Shown here piece after piece: positions 5,360-57,977 of a stretch of DNA of 64,000 nucleotides. The notes under the pieces are model-generated. The model ran no database searches. It saw only the letters and a list, made by a program, of their open reading frames with translations, and was not told the origin of the DNA. How positions within the stretch are numbered: the first letter of the stretch is position 1; each line of letters starts with the position of its first letter. The position numbers and the translations under genes are program-made. The DNA lies in NCBI GenBank assembly GCA_963767115.1, contig CAVYCR010000005.1:25582-89581 (forward strand), written 5' to 3'. This DNA is from Candidatus Kaiserbacteria bacterium (GTDB lineage Bacteria > Patescibacteriota > Minisyncoccia > Phycocordibacterales > UBA2100).

Positions 5360-6840
5360 TTAGTGTATCACCTGTGTCTGGCCATTCCCCGACAACCGTA
5401 GGCCAAATACTGCAAGCGCCGCTGCACACACGGAGAAGAGTGCGCCTACGAGAAATGCTGCGTCATAGCCGCCCGCAAGCGACTGCGCGAGAGCCATACC
5501 ACCCGAAGAGAGGTGCTGCGTGAAGCCTCCTGCGATACTCGCAAGGATCGCGAGACCGAGCGCTCCGCCCATCATAAACGCGGTGTTGACGATGCCGGAA
5601 GCAAGGCCCGACTCGTCCTGCGGCACGCCGTCGAGCGCCGCGAGAAGCATCGGGTTGAGCGCGATGCCCGAGCCTAAGCCGAGCGCGATCATGCCGGGGA
5701 GCACGTTCCAAAGAAACGTCCCGCCGACGGATGCAAAGGAAAAGAGCGCGAGACTGCATGCTACGAGCCCGAGACCAAACATAAGCGAATACTTGATGCC
5801 GTAGCGTATGACGATGCGCGCCGAGAGACCGAGGGAGAGTATCGCCATGATGATGTTGCCCGGTAGAAACGCGAGACCCACTTGCAGTGGCGAATAATGC
5901 AGGACCTGCTGCAGATAGAGCGCCGAAAGGAAAAACCACGCGAACATCGATGCGGACCAGAGTATGGCGATTCCGTTGGCGATCACGACGTTGGGGATAC
6001 GGAAAAGCGAAAGCGGCATCAAGGGAGAGCTCACGCGCGATTCGATCCAGACGAAAAGGCCGATGCCTGCAAGCGAGACGAGTAGTAGGCCGATCGTTTG
6101 CAGCGAGAGCCATCCCGCATAGGATCCGTTGACGATCGCATAGGTGGCGACGATGAGCGAGACGTGATGACGACCGCGCCCCACACATCGAGATGCATGT
6201 GCTTTGTCTCCCCTTTGCCGCCGTCAAGCAGGTAGAGCGACGCAATGGTGACCGCGATGCCGATCGGGATATTTACCAAGAAGATCCAGTGCCAGTCGAG
6301 CGCGGCGGTCAAGACGCCGCCGAGAAAGACGCCGAGCGATCCGCCGCCTGCGGCGACGAATCCGTACACGCCCATCGCTTTGGCCCGTTCCTCTTCCTCG
6401 CGTAAAGAGATTCATCATCAGTGAGAGCGCGACGGCCTATGCGATCGCGCCGCCCGATCCCTGCACGGCGCGCGCGACGATAAGCAATTCTTGCGATCGT
6501 CGAAATGCCGGAGAAAGCGAGCGAGCGTGAAGAGGCGCGATGCCGAAGAGAAAAAGTCGCGCGTTGTCCGTACAGATCGCCGAGCCTGCCGCCGAGCAAG
6601 CAGGAAGCCGCCGAAGGTCAGCGTGTAGGCGTTGATCACCCACGCGAGGTTGGATCATGAGAAACCGAGGCTATCGCGGATCGACGGCAGCGCGACATTG
6701 ACGATCGTCGTATCGAGCACGATCATCAGCGTTCCCATGCACAAGAGGACGAGCGACCACCACTTCCGGTTTGACGTGTGTATAGTTGTCATAATCGCAG
6801 ACAATACCGTACAAAAGCCGGAAAGAGAAACGCCCGCCAT
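5360..6840 (-). pseudogene. MFS transporter (EmrB/QacA-like), 2 in-frame stops plus about 7 frameshifts
   Basis: The N-terminus ...MIVLDTTIVNVALPSIRDSLGFS is followed by an in-frame TGA (6655-6657), then SNLAWVINAYTLTFGGFLL. There is a second in-frame TAG (6437-6439) inside GGAIA*AVALSLMMNLF. The sequence hops frames about 7 times between about 6190 and 6600. The C-terminal 274 aa (5360..6184) are intact. Confidence 0.85.
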
Positions 6841-25860: not shown

Positions 25861-26070
25861 GCTTTGTGAAAGAGAGCGCATGTCATCGGGCATCTTTGCC
25901 TGCCATTCTCCCTTCGTGCCATCAGGCAAAGGTACTGAGATCGCCGCTGCGTGAAGCGCTGAGTGCGCGATGAGGGAAGAAGCACGGCCATACAAAGCAT
26001 CGCCAAGCAGCGGATGACCGATCGACGTGAAGTGCACGCGTATCTGATGCGTGCGGCCCGTTGTGCAAGT
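25795..26070 (-). pseudogene. C-terminal fragment of an RluA-family pseudouridine synthase
   Basis: The reading frame gives TGRTHQIRVHFTSIGHPLLGDALYG...HSALHAAAISVPLPDG. The catalytic N-terminal two-thirds are missing. The fragment begins exactly at the repeat element at 26072. Confidence 0.65.
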
Positions 26071-26071
26071 A

Positions 26072-26108
26072 AGAGGTAAGGGTAAGGGGGACAGTCACAC
26101 TTATCTCA
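26072..26108 (+). repeat. repeat family copy 1 (AGAGGTAAGG[GTAAG]GGGGACAGTCACACTTATCTCA)
   Basis: Near-identical direct copy at 26735-26766. Its core AAGGGGGACAGTCACACTTA (26084-26103) is also present inverted at 26161-26180. Confidence 0.8.
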
Positions 26109-26155
26109 TTTATCTTATTGCGAGGAGGAATGCCTACTACCGAATATCCCTTACT

Positions 26156-26332
26156 TTATTTAAGTGTGACTGTCCCCCTTATCATGTCCCCCTTATCATA
26201 GGTAACGGTCTTTTTGCCCGATGCTTTCTTGTACATACGCACCCAAACGCCACTCGAGCCTACATGATTCTTGGTGAGCCACGATCGCCACGCTGCCGCT
26301 GAAGCAAACGCTTGTACCGGATATGAGTTCAT
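26156..26332 (-). pseudogene. N-terminal fragment of a YdeI/OmpD-associated-family protein fused into the repeat
   Basis: The hand-translated 58-aa ORF begins MNSYPVQAFASAAAWRSWLTKNHVGSSGVWVRMYKKASGKKTVTY, which resembles a YdeI N-terminus. It then reads into the repeat (DKGDMIRGTVTLK*). Confidence 0.5.
26161..26180 (-). repeat. repeat family copy 2 (inverted core)
   Basis: TAAGTGTGACTGTCCCCCTT is the exact reverse complement of 26084-26103, with a 57-nt spacer. Confidence 0.8.
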
Positions 26333-26457
26333 ATCTCTTTGAAATCATGACACCCTGTTGAGTCATTCAATGCCAAATTAAGCTGCTGGGAGCTTGGTCT
26401 GACGTTTGAAGAGTTACGTAATCATGCTAGGGTCTTTGTAGACAAGGGGAGGATATC

Positions 26458-26649
26458 ATGAGTACGGATGGTTCATCTACGAAGTCGCAGCGTCAACCGA
26501 TGATAGGTAACATGCTACGTATTGCCGTATATCTTGCGCCGGCCGTATTGGTGTTTGCTTGCATGCAGTCCTATAACGGACCGCAGTGGATCTCGGATGC
26601 GGTCGCGGGAATAGTAATTTCTATTCTCCTGTATATTCCTGATCATTGA
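26458..26649 (+). CDS. small 2-TM membrane protein
   Basis: 63 aa with a good SD (GGGGAGGATATC ATG), two hydrophobic helices and its own terminator. Confidence 0.55.
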   Translation: MSTDGSSTKSQRQPMIGNMLRIAVYLAPAVLVFACMQSYNGPQWISDAVAGIVISILLYIPDH

Positions 26650-26654
26650 ACCAA

Positions 26655-26683
26655 AAGGGTACCGACGTCCTCGGTACCTTTTT
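26655..26683 (+). terminator. Rho-independent terminator
   Basis: GGTACCGA-CGTCC-TCGGTACC followed by TTTTT. Confidence 0.65.
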
Positions 26684-26734
26684 GCTGACTGACCCTTATT
26701 AAACTAGGGGGTGAGGGAGGGGTAAGGGGATAGG

Positions 26735-26766
26735 AGAGGTAAGGGGGGACAGTCACACTTATCTCA
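26735..26766 (+). repeat. repeat family copy 3
   Basis: AGAGGTAAGGGGGGACAGTCACACTTATCTCA, preceded by a G-run-rich tract (26707-26729). Confidence 0.8.
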
Positions 26767-26810
26767 ATGACTGGGAGTCTGAGACGACGTTGGGACCTTT
26801 CTTCAACACA

Positions 26811-27155
26811 TTAAATTTTATTAAGATCATGCCTAATGACATCAGAGGTTGTCATTATACCGATCGCGTTTGATAGCTTCTTGCGACCGAGATCCAGGTC
26901 GTTAAACTCTTCCTCGCTTAAATAACCGTCTTTGTTCCAGCCCCAGGGTTTGTATTCGCCCGTCCTGTCCCATTTATTCATCTTTTCTAGCGTTTTATAG
27001 AGTTGCGTTAAGATAACCTTTGCCTTTTCCCTACCTTCTGTCTCAAGAGTCACGTGCGCATCCTCGAAAGACTTCCTAAGTGCCGCAATGTGTTCCTGGG
27101 TCGGTGCTTCAGAAGCCTCAATAGTCACCCGTGGTTTCTCGAAACTTTCTTTCAT
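26811..27155 (-). CDS. hypothetical protein
   Basis: The start is set at MKESFEKPRV (114 aa). The longer ORF to 27254 runs through a G9 homopolymer (27223-27231). Confidence 0.5.
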   Translation of the reverse strand: MKESFEKPRVTIEASEAPTQEHIAALRKSFEDAHVTLETEGREKAKVILTQLYKTLEKMNKWDRTGEYKPWGWNKDGYLSEEEFNDLDLGRKKLSNAIGIMTTSDVIRHDLNKI

Positions 27156-31289: not shown

Positions 31290-32951
31290 TTATTTCTTGG
31301 CTCGGTCGCGAGCAGCTTTGAGGAAGGCGTTGAAGAGTGGGTGCGGCGAGAGCGGACGCGCTTTGAGCTCGGGATGGAATTGCGATCCGAGCATGAAGGG
31401 GTGCACCGACTTCGGGAGCTCCGCGATCTCCATGAGTACGCCGTCGGGCGAGCGACCTGAGAAAACGAGGCCGGCCTTCTCGAGCTGCCCGATGTAGTCG
31501 GGGTTGACCTCGAAGCGATGACGATGACGCTCAGAGATCCGGTTCTTCCCGTATGCATCATGCGCGATCGTACCTTTCTCGAGCTCACACGGATACGCTC
31601 CGAGGCGCATCGAGCCGCCATAGTCCTTGCGCGCGAGTTTTTCACTCTGCTCAGGCAGGATCATGATCACGGGGTCGGGGGTCTTCGGTTTGATCTCGGT
31701 CGTGTTGGCATCTTTGAGGCCCAAGACATGGCGCGCGTATTCGATCGTCATGAGCTGCATGCCGTAGCACAGTCCGAAATACGGGATTCTTTTCTCGCGG
31801 GCGAAGCGGATTGCGTTGATCTTGCCCTCGATCCCCGTCTCGCCGAAGCCACCGGGCACGATGATGCCGTCGTACTTCGCGAGCTCTTTCACGCGCTTGG
31901 GATCTTTCTGGTAGTCCTTGGCGTTGAGCCAGCTGATCTCGGGCTTCACGCCTTGCGCAAAGGCCGAGAACTTGATCGCCTCGATCACGGAGAGGTACGC
32001 GTCGGAGAGTACGAAGTCTCCGGTGTCGAAATACTTGCCGACGATGCCGATCTTGACGCTTTTGTTGCCGTTGTGCGCGTGCGCCGCGAATTCTTTCCAC
32101 TCCTTCATGTCGGAAGCTTTCGCACCACGCCTACGGAGCGCCTTGAGCAAGATGTCTGAGAGATGATCGCGCTCGAAATTCAACGGCACATCGTAGATGG
32201 ACGAGACGTCGGGGGCGGAGATGATGTGGTCGGCACTGACGTTGCACCACACTGCAAGCTTCTCCTTCCGCTTCAGATCAAGCGGGTGCGTGGAGCGTGC
32301 AACGATGAAATCAGGCTGCACGCCATATGAGTTGAGTGCGGAGACGGCGTGCTGAGTGGGCTTGGTCTTCATCTCACCGATCGTGCTGGGCACCGGAAGA
32401 TACGAGACGACTATGAAAATGACATCATCGGGATTCTTGAGGTGGATGACTCGCGCCGCATCGATGAAGAGCGCGTTTTGGAAATCCCCGATCGTGCCGC
32501 CGATCTCCACCACCGATACATCTGAATTTGCAAAATCCGCCGCGCGCTCAAGTCGCGAAATGATCTCGTCTCGTACGTGCGGTATAGCCTCGACGAATTT
32601 GCCTCCGTAACCGAGCGCACGCTCGCGTTCGATCACCGTTTTATACACCATGCCGGATGTCATGTAGTCTTCCGGCCCGAGGTCGCGGTCGAGGAAACGC
32701 TCATAGTTGCCCATGTCTTGGTCGGTCTCGAGCCCACTGTCGAGCACGAAGACTTCGCCGTGCTCGGTCGGGTTCATGGTACCGGCATCGACGTTGAGGT
32801 ACGGATCGATCTTGACGAGGTTGACCGAGAGCCCGCGAGCAGCGAGGATCTTGCCGATAGAGGCCGTCGCAATGCCCTTGCCCACCCCGGACATGACACC
32901 GCCAACGACGAAAATATATTTGTGTTTTGCGTGCGCACGCTTCACCGCCAT
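31290..32951 (-). CDS. pyrG: CTP synthase
   Basis: 553 aa with a synthetase domain (GGVMSGVGKG) and a glutamine amidotransferase domain (GLCYGMQ, HRHRFEVN). Confidence 0.95.
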   Translation of the reverse strand: MAVKRAHAKHKYIFVVGGVMSGVGKGIATASIGKILAARGLSVNLVKIDPYLNVDAGTMNPTEHGEVFVLDSGLETDQDMGNYERFLDRDLGPEDYMTSGMVYKTVIERERALGYGGKFVEAIPHVRDEIISRLERAADFANSDVSVVEIGGTIGDFQNALFIDAARVIHLKNPDDVIFIVVSYLPVPSTIGEMKTKPTQHAVSALNSYGVQPDFIVARSTHPLDLKRKEKLAVWCNVSADHIISAPDVSSIYDVPLNFERDHLSDILLKALRRRGAKASDMKEWKEFAAHAHNGNKSVKIGIVGKYFDTGDFVLSDAYLSVIEAIKFSAFAQGVKPEISWLNAKDYQKDPKRVKELAKYDGIIVPGGFGETGIEGKINAIRFAREKRIPYFGLCYGMQLMTIEYARHVLGLKDANTTEIKPKTPDPVIMILPEQSEKLARKDYGGSMRLGAYPCELEKGTIAHDAYGKNRISERHRHRFEVNPDYIGQLEKAGLVFSGRSPDGVLMEIAELPKSVHPFMLGSQFHPELKARPLSPHPLFNAFLKAARDRAKK

Positions 32952-33031
32952 ATGTTTAAAAATGATTACGACTCGTTCAGCCTACCACGCGGCAAATCTG
33001 TGATTTGACGCGGTGTGGGGATAGTGGCGGT

Positions 33032-33153
33032 GAGGCACTTATCTGGCAGCAAGGTTTTTGCCGTCGCTATCTGGGCCTGCTGGCCCAGCGCTCGGACTCG
33101 GCGCCGTCGCGCCTGCGTAGCCGGCAAAAACCTTGCTGCCAGATAAGTGCCTC
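33032..33153. repeat. 122-bp palindromic element A (32-bp perfect arms, 58-nt GC-rich spacer)
   Basis: GAGGCACTTATCTGGCAGCAAGGTTTTTGCCG (33032-33063) is the exact reverse complement of 33122-33153. The spacer itself contains CTGGGCC/GGCCCAG. Confidence 0.85.
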
Positions 33154-33163
33154 TGGTTTGCGT

Positions 33164-33288
33164 TGGACCGTATTCCGGAGCAAGTAATTTTTACGGCCGA
33201 GGACCGAACCCGCAGACCCGCTTGCGGGGCGTGAGGGCGCTATGCGTCCCGCAGGACGTAAAAATTACTTGCTCCGGAATACGGTCCA
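33164..33288. repeat. 125-bp palindromic element B (32-bp perfect arms, 61-nt GC-rich spacer)
   Basis: TGGACCGTATTCCGGAGCAAGTAATTTTTACG (33164-33195) is the exact reverse complement of 33257-33288. The arms share GG(C)AGCAAG...TTTTT.C.G with element A. Confidence 0.85.
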
Positions 33289-33303
33289 GAGATTACAGGC
33301 CCG

Positions 33304-34233
33304 TTATATACGAAGATACCGTCGCACGGCGAGATAGCTCGAGAGTGCGCCAAGGGCGACACCGGAGGCCATGACTAGCCCAAAGAGCATCCAGAAATTC
33401 GCAAGGTAATAGGTGTATACGTCGAAGGTGGTCAGGAATTCTTCTGACGGCGGGCCGAGCCAGATCGAGAGCGGGAAAAGAAGCGCGAGCACGATGACGC
33501 CCGAGATCACGCCGTAGAGAATGCCGGAGACCACGAACGGACCGCGCACGTACCAGCGGCCGGCGCCGACGAGGTTCATCACGCCGATCTCATCGCGCGC
33601 CGTATAGATCGCGAGCCGGATCGTGTTGAAGGCGATCAAGAGTGACGCGACCGCGAGCACTGCAGCAACGGCGATGCCGAGCTCGTGCGAAGTCCGTATG
33701 ATATTGGAAAGGCGGTCGATCGCTGTCTGGTTCTGTGCGAAGTTGACATTGTCGATGACCGAGCCTGCATCGGTACCGGCCGACTGCTGGGCAGTGAGGT
33801 ACTGTGCGATTGATTGATATTGCGAAGTGTCCTTCGCTTGCACCTGAAGCGAAGCCTCGAGTGGATTGTTGGGTAGCTCTTGCAAGGCCTGCATAGTGAG
33901 AGCGTCGTTCTGGTGACGCTCTTCGAAAGCAGCAAGCGCCTGGTCGCTCGATACATAGGTCACCGCCTGCACTTCAGGCAGAGCCTGTATCGAGGTCTCG
34001 AGCTCCTGCACCTGCTCTTGTGTCGCAGTGGTCGTGAGGTAAACGGTGATATCGACCTTGCCGGTGAGATCCTTCAAGACCGAATCGAGTGCTGCGCCGG
34101 AGATCACGAGTACTGCCATCACAAAAAGCGTGATCGTCATCACCAAGACTGCAGAGAGCGAGACGAAACCATTGCGCAAGAAGCCGATGAAGCCGTAGCG
34201 CGCTATTCTTTTAGTAGTAACCCAGATACTCAT
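33304..34233 (-). CDS. ftsX: cell division permease-like protein FtsX
   Basis: 309 aa with an FtsX topology (TM1, large extracytoplasmic loop, 3 C-terminal TM). It is adjacent to ftsE. Confidence 0.88.
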   Translation of the reverse strand: MSIWVTTKRIARYGFIGFLRNGFVSLSAVLVMTITLFVMAVLVISGAALDSVLKDLTGKVDITVYLTTTATQEQVQELETSIQALPEVQAVTYVSSDQALAAFEERHQNDALTMQALQELPNNPLEASLQVQAKDTSQYQSIAQYLTAQQSAGTDAGSVIDNVNFAQNQTAIDRLSNIIRTSHELGIAVAAVLAVASLLIAFNTIRLAIYTARDEIGVMNLVGAGRWYVRGPFVVSGILYGVISGVIVLALLFPLSIWLGPPSEEFLTTFDVYTYYLANFWMLFGLVMASGVALGALSSYLAVRRYLRI

Positions 34234-57820: not shown

Positions 57821-57836
57821 ACCCCAGCTCCGCCCT

Positions 57837-57868
57837 GCAAGTCCTTCCGGCGGCAAGAAATACAAGTC
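57837..57868 (+). repeat. inverted copy of the tRNA-Met 3' end plus trailer
   Basis: GCAAGTCCTTCCGGCGGCA-AGAAATACA on the plus strand matches minus-strand GCAAGTCCTTCCGCCGGCAcTAGAAATACA (57890-57922). Confidence 0.75.
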
Positions 57869-57903
57869 GTATAATGCGATGCATCATACTCCTGTATTTC
57901 TAG

Positions 57904-57977
57904 TGCCGGCGGAAGGACTTGCACCTTCGACCTTGGGTTTATGAGTCCCATGCTCTAACTACCTGAGCTACGCCGGC
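57904..57977 (-). tRNA. atypical tRNA with anticodon CAU (elongator Met or Ile2)
   Basis: The cloverleaf folds, with G1-C72 paired. However, the T-loop reads TGCAAGT (G at position 55 instead of U) and 31:39 is A.A. Confidence 0.65.

Follow-up and report, generated by a model that had tools for sequence, protein, structure and literature searches.

Two adjacent hairpins lie between ftsX and pyrG

The subject of this work is a pair of adjacent palindromic elements, here called A and B, that lie between the genes ftsX and pyrG in a 64,000-nt stretch of Candidatus Kaiserbacteria contig CAVYCR010000005.1. This whole stretch is referred to as the window, and the contigs or loci with which it was compared carry L-numbers. 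The original prediction, made from the letters of the DNA, had placed the two elements correctly between pyrG and ftsX, but their order has to be turned around: both genes are on the minus strand, so that in the direction of transcription the ftsX stop codon is followed by 15 nt, element B, 10 nt, element A, 80 nt and the pyrG ATG. The genes ftsE and prfB are located upstream of ftsX, and an Exo_endo_phos gene is a further neighbour. The homologs of FtsX carry the names Candidatus Kaiserbacteria or Paceibacterota, the closest being only 75% identical, which makes this a genome of the Patescibacteria. In the order of transcription, the features of the locus are as follows.

33304..34233, minus strand: ftsX, 309 aa, with Pfam domains FtsX_ECD and FtsX; stop codon at 33304-33306
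33289..33303, minus strand: linker of 15 nt between the ftsX stop and B, read from the sequence
33164..33288, minus strand: element B, a 125-bp hairpin with its loop at 33196-33256 (61 nt) and a putative type-2 core
33154..33163, minus strand: linker of 10 nt between B and A, read from the sequence
33032..33153, minus strand, which is the canonical strand: element A, a 122-bp type-1 hairpin (97.9 bits with the covariance model R1, described below)
33100..33113, minus strand: hairpin H1 of A, GGCGC-GACG-GCGCC
33071..33088, minus strand: hairpin H2 of A, CUGGGCC-AGCA-GGCCCAG
32952..33031, minus strand: tail of 80 nt from A to the pyrG start, belonging to a lineage-specific insertion and missing in relatives
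31290..32951, minus strand: pyrG, CTP synthase, 553 aa, with Pfam domains CTP_synth_N and GATase

The coordinates originally given for two neighbouring palindromes with exact 32-nt arms were confirmed. The arms of A (33032-33063 and 33122-33153) are 100% complementary and enclose a spacer of 58 nt, and those of B (33164-33195 and 33257-33288) are equally perfect around a spacer of 61 nt; the two elements are 10 nt apart. With one mismatch, the arms of B stretch to 35 nt (33164-33198 and 33254-33288). The stems, which have GAGGCAC... and TGGACCG... at their feet, are perfect and without bulges. Folded as RNA, the 281-nt region gave -173.8 kcal/mol on the minus strand (z = -13.7 against dinucleotide shuffles) and -177.4 kcal/mol on the plus strand (z = -12.7); folded as DNA, A and B gave z = -13.4 and z = -10.4, respectively. 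The two strands of the hairpins are about equal in how well they fold.

A scan for perfect inverted repeats (arms of 20 nt or more, loops of 40-90 nt) detected three in the 64-kb window, namely A, B and an unrelated one at 26083-26181, and none in either 1.23 Mb of unrelated viral control loci or 30 kb from ftsX relatives. The pattern AGCAAG N1-3 TTTTT, for which 0.07 chance matches are expected, was found in the window only in the four arms of A and B, although an arm-against-arm alignment of the two elements was marginal (p about 0.056) and not significant as a stand-alone argument. There are no further copies of either arm within the window, and the arms are not derived from the flanking genes. 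The open reading frames that run through the arms had no Pfam match and no homolog among 5.8 billion proteins, in agreement with the view taken of them from the outset, that they look non-coding.

An independent Logan assembly (L001, 3260 bp) contains an identical ftsX, encoding an identical FtsX, and ends 31 nt inside the outer arm of B. Since it stops at the B palindrome, as k-mer assemblers do, this contig provides independent confirmation of the junction between ftsX and B. The PyrG protein of the window was sought for a corresponding check of the junction on the A side and was not on record.

Two other inverted repeats of the window are described here in their own right. The perfect repeat at 26083-26181 has 21-nt arms (TAAGGGGGACAGTCACACTTA) and a 57-nt loop; its sequence is unrelated to A and B and gives no R1 match. 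The roughly 800 nt around it (25973-26811) contain open reading frames without a Pfam match, and it is bordered by short direct repeats (GGTAAGG...; CCCCCTTATCAT twice). The second, at 57821-57855 and 57904-57938, is a 35-nt inverted repeat with 77% complementarity. Its second arm (57904-57938) falls inside a tRNA-Met(cat) gene (57903-57977, minus strand), so the repeat represents an inverted partial copy of the tRNA 48 nt away, and this copy near 57821-57855 could be a remnant attachment site.

The hairpins are part of a lineage-specific insertion

The spacer between ftsX and pyrG measures 352 nt in the window (32952-33303), of which the hairpins make up 247 nt. In four related lineages (L002, L003/4/5, L006/7/8 and L123; FtsX 73-75% identical), the ftsX stop and the pyrG start are separated by 1-3 nt, as in TGAtctATG or TGAtATG. 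Since the genes of these relatives are 1-3 nt apart, the whole 352-nt spacer represents a lineage-specific gain, and the comparison suggests that the insertion splits an ftsX-pyrG pair that is normally coupled. Of the two signs of insertion that the original prediction had associated with this spacer, polymorphism among relatives is thus seen, with four lineages showing an empty site, and target-site duplications were not found.

The 80-nt tail between A and pyrG is without a Shine-Dalgarno-like sequence, and a promoter scan of the minus strand over the elements and the tail reported no promoter-like site.

The core of element A defines a family in Patescibacteria

Collections of metagenomes and of genomes, the latter not including that of the window, were first scanned with a hairpin pattern derived from the arms. 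Most of the matches listed were unrelated palindromes, which cannot be taken as relatives since the query itself had imposed the common motif. Among the matches was a 96-nt hairpin in a Saccharibacteria metagenome-assembled genome (MAG), L019:2878-2973, that aligns end to end with A. The loop of A, read on the minus strand, scored 15 against the loop of L019, compared with 7.06 +/- 1.38 for shuffled sequences, none of which reached 15 in 5000 trials. Both contain the 12-mer GCGCGACGGCGC, a junction of the form CGAG..CGAG and a hairpin whose loop is AGCA and whose stem, GC-rich in A and AU-rich in L019, is fully compensated.

An inverted-repeat finder yielded two more copies, the arms of which lack the search motif: L064:8267-8378 (L064b), which is the same as L266:6643-6754, and L264:4883-5008. 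The 12-mer GCGCGACGGCGC, located within H1 at 33101-33112 in A, is identical in A, L019 and L064b. When H1 and H2 together were sought with a structural regular expression in 2.14 Mb, only four sites were found, and all four lay in long perfect inverted repeats on contigs of the Candidate Phyla Radiation (CPR), i.e. Patescibacteria.

A covariance model, R1, was built from the first four members (A, L019, L064b and L264). It identified L266:4335-4433 (L266c; 63.7 bits), in the same genome as L064b and 2.2 kb from it, L037:124-222 (47.4 bits), and L006:3075-3166 (44.1 bits), which lies between prfB and ftsE in one of the ftsX relatives and recurs in a second assembly, L007. The 97.9 bits scored by A are those of a training member; its homology with L019 was shown independently. 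In viral control loci, amounting to about 1.0 Mb, R1 gave no match. On the reverse strand, true members reached only 21-34 bits, which argues that the oriented core, and not the palindrome alone, carries the signal.

The type-1 family therefore comprises at least seven copies in six Patescibacteria genomes or metagenome bins, Kaiserbacteria/Paceibacterota and Saccharibacteria among them, with two of the seven members (L019 and L037) having been ascertained via the arm motif taken from A. Judged by the names of their LepA homologs, L064, L264, L266 and L268 also belong to Kaiserbacteria/Paceibacterota. The homologs of A lie in six other contigs that are of independent origin as regards both the study and the assembler (JGI, ENA, Logan and NCBI MAGs), and L064b, as well as a further element of the same genome, L064a (see below), is identical in up to four assemblies. 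The search for further copies that had been suggested at the outset was thus negative for either arm within the window and positive for homologs of A elsewhere, and the concern raised at the same time, that the elements might be unique to this locus or an assembly chimera, can be dismissed.

Viruses and plasmids were also searched. IMG/VR was scanned with the arm-hairpin pattern, with H1+CGAG, with H1..CAGCAG and with the H2 sequence, and no true member was recovered, the matches being without inverted-repeat arms or failing R1. BLAST of the 352-nt insert found nothing in phages and, in plasmids, only GC-rich chance matches of 33-45 nt in Streptomyces and Variovorax. Within the collections searched, the elements do not appear to be borne by phages or plasmids.

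Several other sequences came to light during these searches. A Sediminibacterium MAG (three contigs) and another Bacteroidota MAG carry hairpins (L024:2272-2368, L036:1015-1115, L048:5690-5789 and L032:7155-7247) of a type that has conserved arms of about 40 nt (TGAATAATGAATATTGAGCAAGGAATTTTGAATGTTGAAGT) around a loop of 51-70 nt that differs in each copy. The metagenome contigs L066, L068, L090, L113 and L120 have in common a family of long palindromes, with the arm core GTGTGAGAGGAAGCAAGGTATTTTATACCCC, that contain the search motif. L060 is a palindrome over the whole contig, with about 2 kb per arm, and looks like an assembly chimera. Like those five contigs, it was matched solely on account of the search motif. 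The arm scan also matched AAGGA-rich repeats of Mucilaginibacter, and none of these palindromes is counted as a relative. In L266, a gene caller had predicted a 153-aa open reading frame (6319-6780) straight through the L064b hairpin.

A conserved three-way junction is closed by a variable stem

Type-1 elements have the architecture of a T-shaped three-way junction, the conserved part of which is the loop, or core, and not the arms. The long stem, P1, measures 20-32 bp and is perfect in five of the seven copies; it has two mismatches in L266c, and in L006 only a 10-bp and a 6-bp helix are left, with an internal loop between them. A T4-5 run on the 5' strand, with an A-run on the 3' strand, lies 3-8 nt below the junction. 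H1 is a GC stem of 4-9 bp with the loop GACG or GACUG, and H2 is a stem of 7-10 bp, the C-AGCA-G loop of which is invariant except for AACA in L006.

The proposed helices covary strongly. The H2 stem of A, which is GC-rich, is fully compensated with respect to the AU-rich stems of the other members, and double-sided changes are found at seven of the nine pairs of the H2 helix. In the alignment of all seven members, which was fitted to the model and for that reason favours pairing, 94.2% of cells are standard pairs, compared with 69.8% after shuffling and 37-52% in a slid control. Double-sided changes affect 22 of 32 pairs (10.7 after shuffling; 5-9 in the slid control), and the covariation score is 0.689, against 0.19 for shuffles, none of which reached the observed value in 500 trials, and 0.06-0.13 for the slid control. 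Wobble pairs account for only 4 of 223 cells, as opposed to 50 cells with a double-sided change. This scarcity of wobbles, together with the equal folding of both strands, points to stems that are under constraint at the DNA level, or are homogenised, and not to classical selection at the level of RNA.

In their outer 10-15 nt, the arms differ between all seven type-1 copies, whereas the inner T-run and a few adjacent bases are common to them. Even the two paralogs in one genome, L064b and L266c, share only a CCCGGC block and the inner TTTTGCCGTC in their arms. The arm pattern by which A and B were first assigned to one family is real as a shared motif, but the arms evolve fast, and what defines the family is the core within the 58-nt spacer of A. 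A putative conserved 3' tail, N7-CTAY-CACAC, was seen in three members (A, L019 and L064b); neither the three members found later nor shuffle tests bore it out, and it was dropped.

Element B probably carries a second type of core

The set of features that defines type-1 (a Watson-Crick stem with the T/A-run, H1, H2 and the junction) is found in A and not in B, and R1 gives no match to B even at E<=10. A and B have in common only the general architecture, the T-run and the weak arm motif. On the minus strand, the loop of B starts with CTGCGGGACGCAT and ends with TCCTCGGC. The elements located 3' of lepA in L268 and L064 (L268a and L064a) start with CTGCGGGGCGCAT or CTCCGGGGCGCAT and end with TCCTCGCC or TCCTCGCT, at the same positions as in B, and a local alignment of B with these elements, restricted to the loops, gave p about 0.03. 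From this resemblance we conclude, with moderate confidence, that B is probably a member of a second core type, type-2, such as occurs 3' of lepA in another Kaiserbacteria lineage. The idea that A and B are copies of one element is not borne out, given that R1 misses B and that the ends of its loop resemble a different core type.

L064a and L268a are orthologs (LepA 94% identical), and their loops are homologous; substitutions and indels separate the arms of the one from those of the other, and the arms still pair. The arms of L064a (GCAGCAAGGTTTTTGCC) are nearly equal to the inner arm of A, so that arms and cores look modular within one superfamily.

Copies occupy scattered and polymorphic sites

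Copies are located between genes at sites unrelated to one another, for the most part 0-15 nt away from a stop codon. The sites are ftsX|pyrG, gyrA|methyltransferase, small ORF|DUF1761, response regulator|ABC transporter, lepA 3', prfB|ftsE and a position upstream of a tRNA cluster. For six copies the context is known, and four of these are sense and two (L019 and L006) antisense to the flanking genes; some family members lie upstream of divergent genes. This occurrence in both orientations, and the avoidance of G-U pairs in the helices, weakens the earlier suggestion that the elements are 3'-UTR RNAs of ftsX. At the lepA 3' site, related loci differ as follows, LepA identities being relative to L064.

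L064 (LepA 100%, the reference): type-2 element
L268 (LepA 94%): type-2 element
L264 (LepA 91%): type-1 element nested in another 32-bp perfect inverted repeat
L269 (LepA 87%): genes overlap, element absent
L265 (LepA 86%): 48-nt spacer with an 11-bp hairpin, no element

The nested arrangement spans L264:4841-5056, where a 32-nt perfect inverted repeat (GGCGCCCCTGCCTGTGCCTCATTTTCGCGAAT) surrounds a complete type-1 element that has its own perfect arms of 28 nt. The tandem of A and B, this nesting, the paralogs and the presence or absence of elements among relatives are typical of mobile DNA. There was no inversion of the loop (flip/flop), the orientation being the same in four assemblies of the L064 genome.

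The elements differ from known mobile and regulatory hairpins

[quoted passage not shown] The original comparison with MITEs holds to the extent that the elements are inserted, non-coding, palindromic and insertion-polymorphic. Terminal inverted repeats are present, being 32 nt long and perfect in A and B, 20-31 nt in five other members, and short and interrupted in L006, and insertion polymorphism is seen both at ftsX|pyrG, with its four empty lineages, and at the lepA 3' site. The comparison fails with respect to target-site duplications, which are absent, and termini, which are not conserved, and a classical or strict MITE was rejected on these grounds. Neither A and B nor the other copies have direct repeats adjoining their arms; a CAATGAA 7-mer recurs near L266c, 6 nt from the element end.

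Like the Correia/NEMIS elements of Neisseria and the ERIC elements of enterobacteria, the elements are roughly 100-150 bp long, non-coding and built of inverted-repeat arms that as RNA form a long duplex; they are likewise intergenic, in or beside operons, and present or absent among relatives. Co-transcribed Correia MITE hairpins are cleaved by RNase III, and ERIC elements have effects on the levels and stability of mRNA (PMC10969869). Unlike Correia and ERIC, the elements described here have no target-site duplication, no cognate insertion sequence (IS) that we could find and an apparently low copy number; moreover, the outer ends of their arms vary, their central core and inner T-run are conserved, and the arms are perfect in nearly every copy.

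REPs are imperfect palindromes of 20-40 nt with an unpaired GTAG/CGTC tag, and two inverted REPs make a REPIN (PMC3733652). They are mobilised by the Y1/HUH enzyme RAYT (REP-associated tyrosine transposase) and are believed to move as folded single-stranded DNA (ssDNA; PMC3116915, PMC3333891, PMC3733652). Similarities with this system are that both consist of intergenic hairpin DNA without target-site duplications, often right after genes, and form dimers, clusters or 'super-hairpins'. In contrast to REPs, which are 20-40 nt long, tagged and present in tens to hundreds of copies, the unit here is a hairpin of 96-126 bp with a three-way-junction core. A REP or REPIN was rejected, as neither arm is a palindrome in itself and the foot of the stem carries no consistent tag.

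The Kaiserbacteria genome that contains L064a, L064b and L266c also encodes a RAYT-like transposase of the Y1 (IS200-like) kind, which is 205 aa long and contains the motifs HFH and YIHQNP (L122:2158-2775, minus strand). A 15-nt palindrome, CAAGGGTGCCCCTTG, is found in three copies there: before the start of the gene, inside it (as the reverse complement) and at its stop. Together, the gene and CAAGGGTGCCCCTTG would be a REP/RAYT-type system in a CPR genome.

Integron attC sites have R''/R' boxes (RYYYAAC/GTTRRRY), act as folded single strands and may have a branched variable terminal structure. The elements resemble them in size (compare the 123-126-bp VCRs of Vibrio), in their position right after a stop codon and in keeping structure more than sequence. 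Unlike attC, they lack R/L boxes, extrahelical bases and an unpaired central spacer, and their apex is conserved and their stem variable, which is the reverse of the situation in attC. An attC site was rejected, there being no R boxes or bulges and no integrase or cassettes among the neighbours, which are ftsE, ftsX, pyrG, prfB and Exo_endo_phos. The inverted terminal repeat (ITR) of adeno-associated virus, a parvovirus, is T-shaped, about 125 nt long and has a long perfect stem around two short hairpins, with Watson-Crick pairs only. The long stem of type-1 elements, enclosing two short hairpins at a three-way junction, makes this a structural analogy only: ITRs form the ends of a linear ssDNA genome with hairpin-primed replication, whereas the elements are internal to a bacterial chromosome and have no Rep gene.

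As with intrinsic terminators, a hairpin lies directly downstream of a gene. What sets the elements apart from terminators is a stem 3-4 times too long, a large branched loop and a T-run that lies inside the 5' arm. A terminator scan called nothing at A or B, and on neither strand does a U-tract come after the hairpins, the downstream sequences being ACGCAAACC and ACCGCCACT. When the window was compared with Rfam 15 at the gathering threshold, only tRNAs were found. At E<=10, the hairpin region matched only two sub-threshold models of animal miRNA hairpins, with no PyrR or other leader, and in 10 other loci the homologous elements were free of any overlapping Rfam match. The idea of a pyrG attenuator or PyrR site was rejected, there being no Rfam PyrR match and the relatives being without any leader. 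The original statement that no described motif with such a layout was known stands as far as Rfam is concerned, and a full-text literature search found no description of such elements in Patescibacteria.

Discussion

The results suggest a model, to which we assign roughly an even chance of being correct, whereby A and B are two different members of a Patescibacteria superfamily of small selfish hairpin elements that is MITE/REPIN-like but atypical. Such elements, non-autonomous and about 95-125 bp in length, would have landed separately at the ftsX-pyrG junction, or would have arrived jointly as one 352-nt block. Each would consist of a long stem closed by a structured core of 50-70 nt, of type-1 in A and probably of type-2 in B. 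We propose the core as the recognition module since it is the only part conserved in sequence between distant genomes; on folded ssDNA it might be recognised by a trans-acting structure-specific enzyme, for which a HUH/Y1-type transposase or recombinase is the candidate kind. The arms would need only to pair, and could drift fast in sequence with Watson-Crick pairing kept perfect. Their perfection is likely to arise from intra-element template switching in replication (quasi-palindrome correction), and not from selection on RNA; such switching between the arms would explain their fast concerted divergence.

Given that no terminator or U-tract was found and that the scan of the 80-nt tail reported nothing promoter-like, the ftsX-pyrG mRNA most likely includes both elements. 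Long perfect RNA duplexes are textbook substrates of RNase III. In such an mRNA, the 32-bp duplexes would uncouple translation of pyrG from that of ftsX and would be RNase III substrates, as for the Correia MITEs (PMC10969869).

Several observations count against A and B being selfish elements of this kind. There is no target-site duplication consistent across the seven type-1 copies, and the arms lack conserved outer termini, in contrast to terminal inverted repeats that are bound by a transposase. No cognate transposase, IS or mobilising enzyme was found, and no Y1_Tnp domain was present in the 10 window open reading frames tested. A link to the RAYT-like gene was rejected, since that gene is flanked by its own palindrome, CAAGGGTGCCCCTTG, which is unrelated to type-1 and type-2. 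Copy number looks low: the 64-kb window has one type-1 element, and about 25 kb of the L064/L266 genome have two. The assignment of B to type-2 rests on modest statistics, and the conservation of the H1 and H2 loops between Saccharibacteria and Kaiserbacteria equally fits a function in RNA or in protein binding. More tentatively, and with a distinctly smaller probability, the elements could represent an unrecognised, Patescibacteria-specific class of modular hairpin mobile elements, in which a folded core would be moved as ssDNA by a structure-specific enzyme with a sequence-free, self-correcting stem travelling along; or else the type-1 core could be a new and widespread structured RNA of the CPR.

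The main rival is a structured RNA with a function for the host. Such an RNA, be it a cis-acting intercistronic module for processing or stability or a small RNA gene, would have its core bound and would use the stem for processing by RNase III. The strong covariation and the invariant loops (GACG; C-AGCA-G) across two Patescibacteria classes are the best support for this idea, which also agrees with the sense orientation of four of the six copies with known context, the location directly after stop codons and the very stable predicted folds. However, wobbles in just 4 of 223 cells and a strand-symmetric fold are both atypical of helix selection at the RNA level, the L019 and L006 copies are antisense to their operons, close relatives differ in presence or absence at the same site, and nested and tandem arrangements occur; with neither an Rfam match nor a reported promoter-like site, we consider a host RNA unlikely. 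The Watson-Crick-only helices, equal on both strands, would suit a functional site at the DNA level, such as an attC/dif-like recombination site, a single-strand initiation (priming) signal or an architectural protein-binding site. The T-junction does resemble the variable terminal structures of attC and the parvoviral ITRs, and 96-126 bp is within the attC/VCR range. Nevertheless, the stem feet have no R''/R' boxes and the stems no extrahelical bases, no integrase or cassette array is adjacent, and the sites are single and scattered between housekeeping genes. A cruciform is, moreover, kinetically hard to extrude with an unpaired centre of 58-61 nt, and a site of this kind seems to us quite improbable.

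A role in terminating ftsX or regulating pyrG by attenuation is suggested by the position immediately downstream of the one gene and upstream of the other; pyrG is attenuator-controlled in some Firmicutes, and at the lepA 3' site, where others carry long elements, a simple hairpin of 11 bp is found in L265. This explanation sits badly with 32-bp stems around a branched loop of 58-61 nt that lack a U-tract on either strand and a terminator call, with the relatives in which ftsX and pyrG are fused without a leader, with the occurrence of members in both orientations, including upstream of divergent genes, and with the lack of a PyrR or other Rfam leader at E<=10. We regard it as very improbable indeed. 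Neutral local palindromes produced by template switching, or a chimera of assembly or amplification, with no family and no function, would account for perfect arms, which are expected from a recent inverted duplication or a chimera, and the Logan contig does break in B. Yet the flanking genes are not the source of the arms, A has homologs on six further contigs that independent studies and assemblers produced, up to four assemblies agree exactly on L064a and L064b, the covariation greatly exceeds that of the controls and the ftsX-B junction was seen independently in that same Logan contig, so that this last explanation is essentially refuted.

Patescibacteria genomes are tiny and streamlined, and neither Rfam nor a full-text literature search yielded a described family of dispersed repeats or structured RNAs of this sort in them. 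It is therefore notable to find a family of 100-125 bp with a conserved three-way-junction core and arms that change fast and yet pair perfectly, invading tight operon junctions. In practical terms, palindromes that are perfect over 32 bp cause short-read assemblies of CPR MAGs to break, the Logan contig being an example, and draw spurious calls of open reading frames. If transcribed, the elements would bring long stretches of double-stranded RNA, as well as probable cleavage sites for RNase III, into essential operons. As selfish hairpins, they would offer a handle on the movement of selfish DNA in Patescibacteria and a natural example of concerted evolution within a palindrome.

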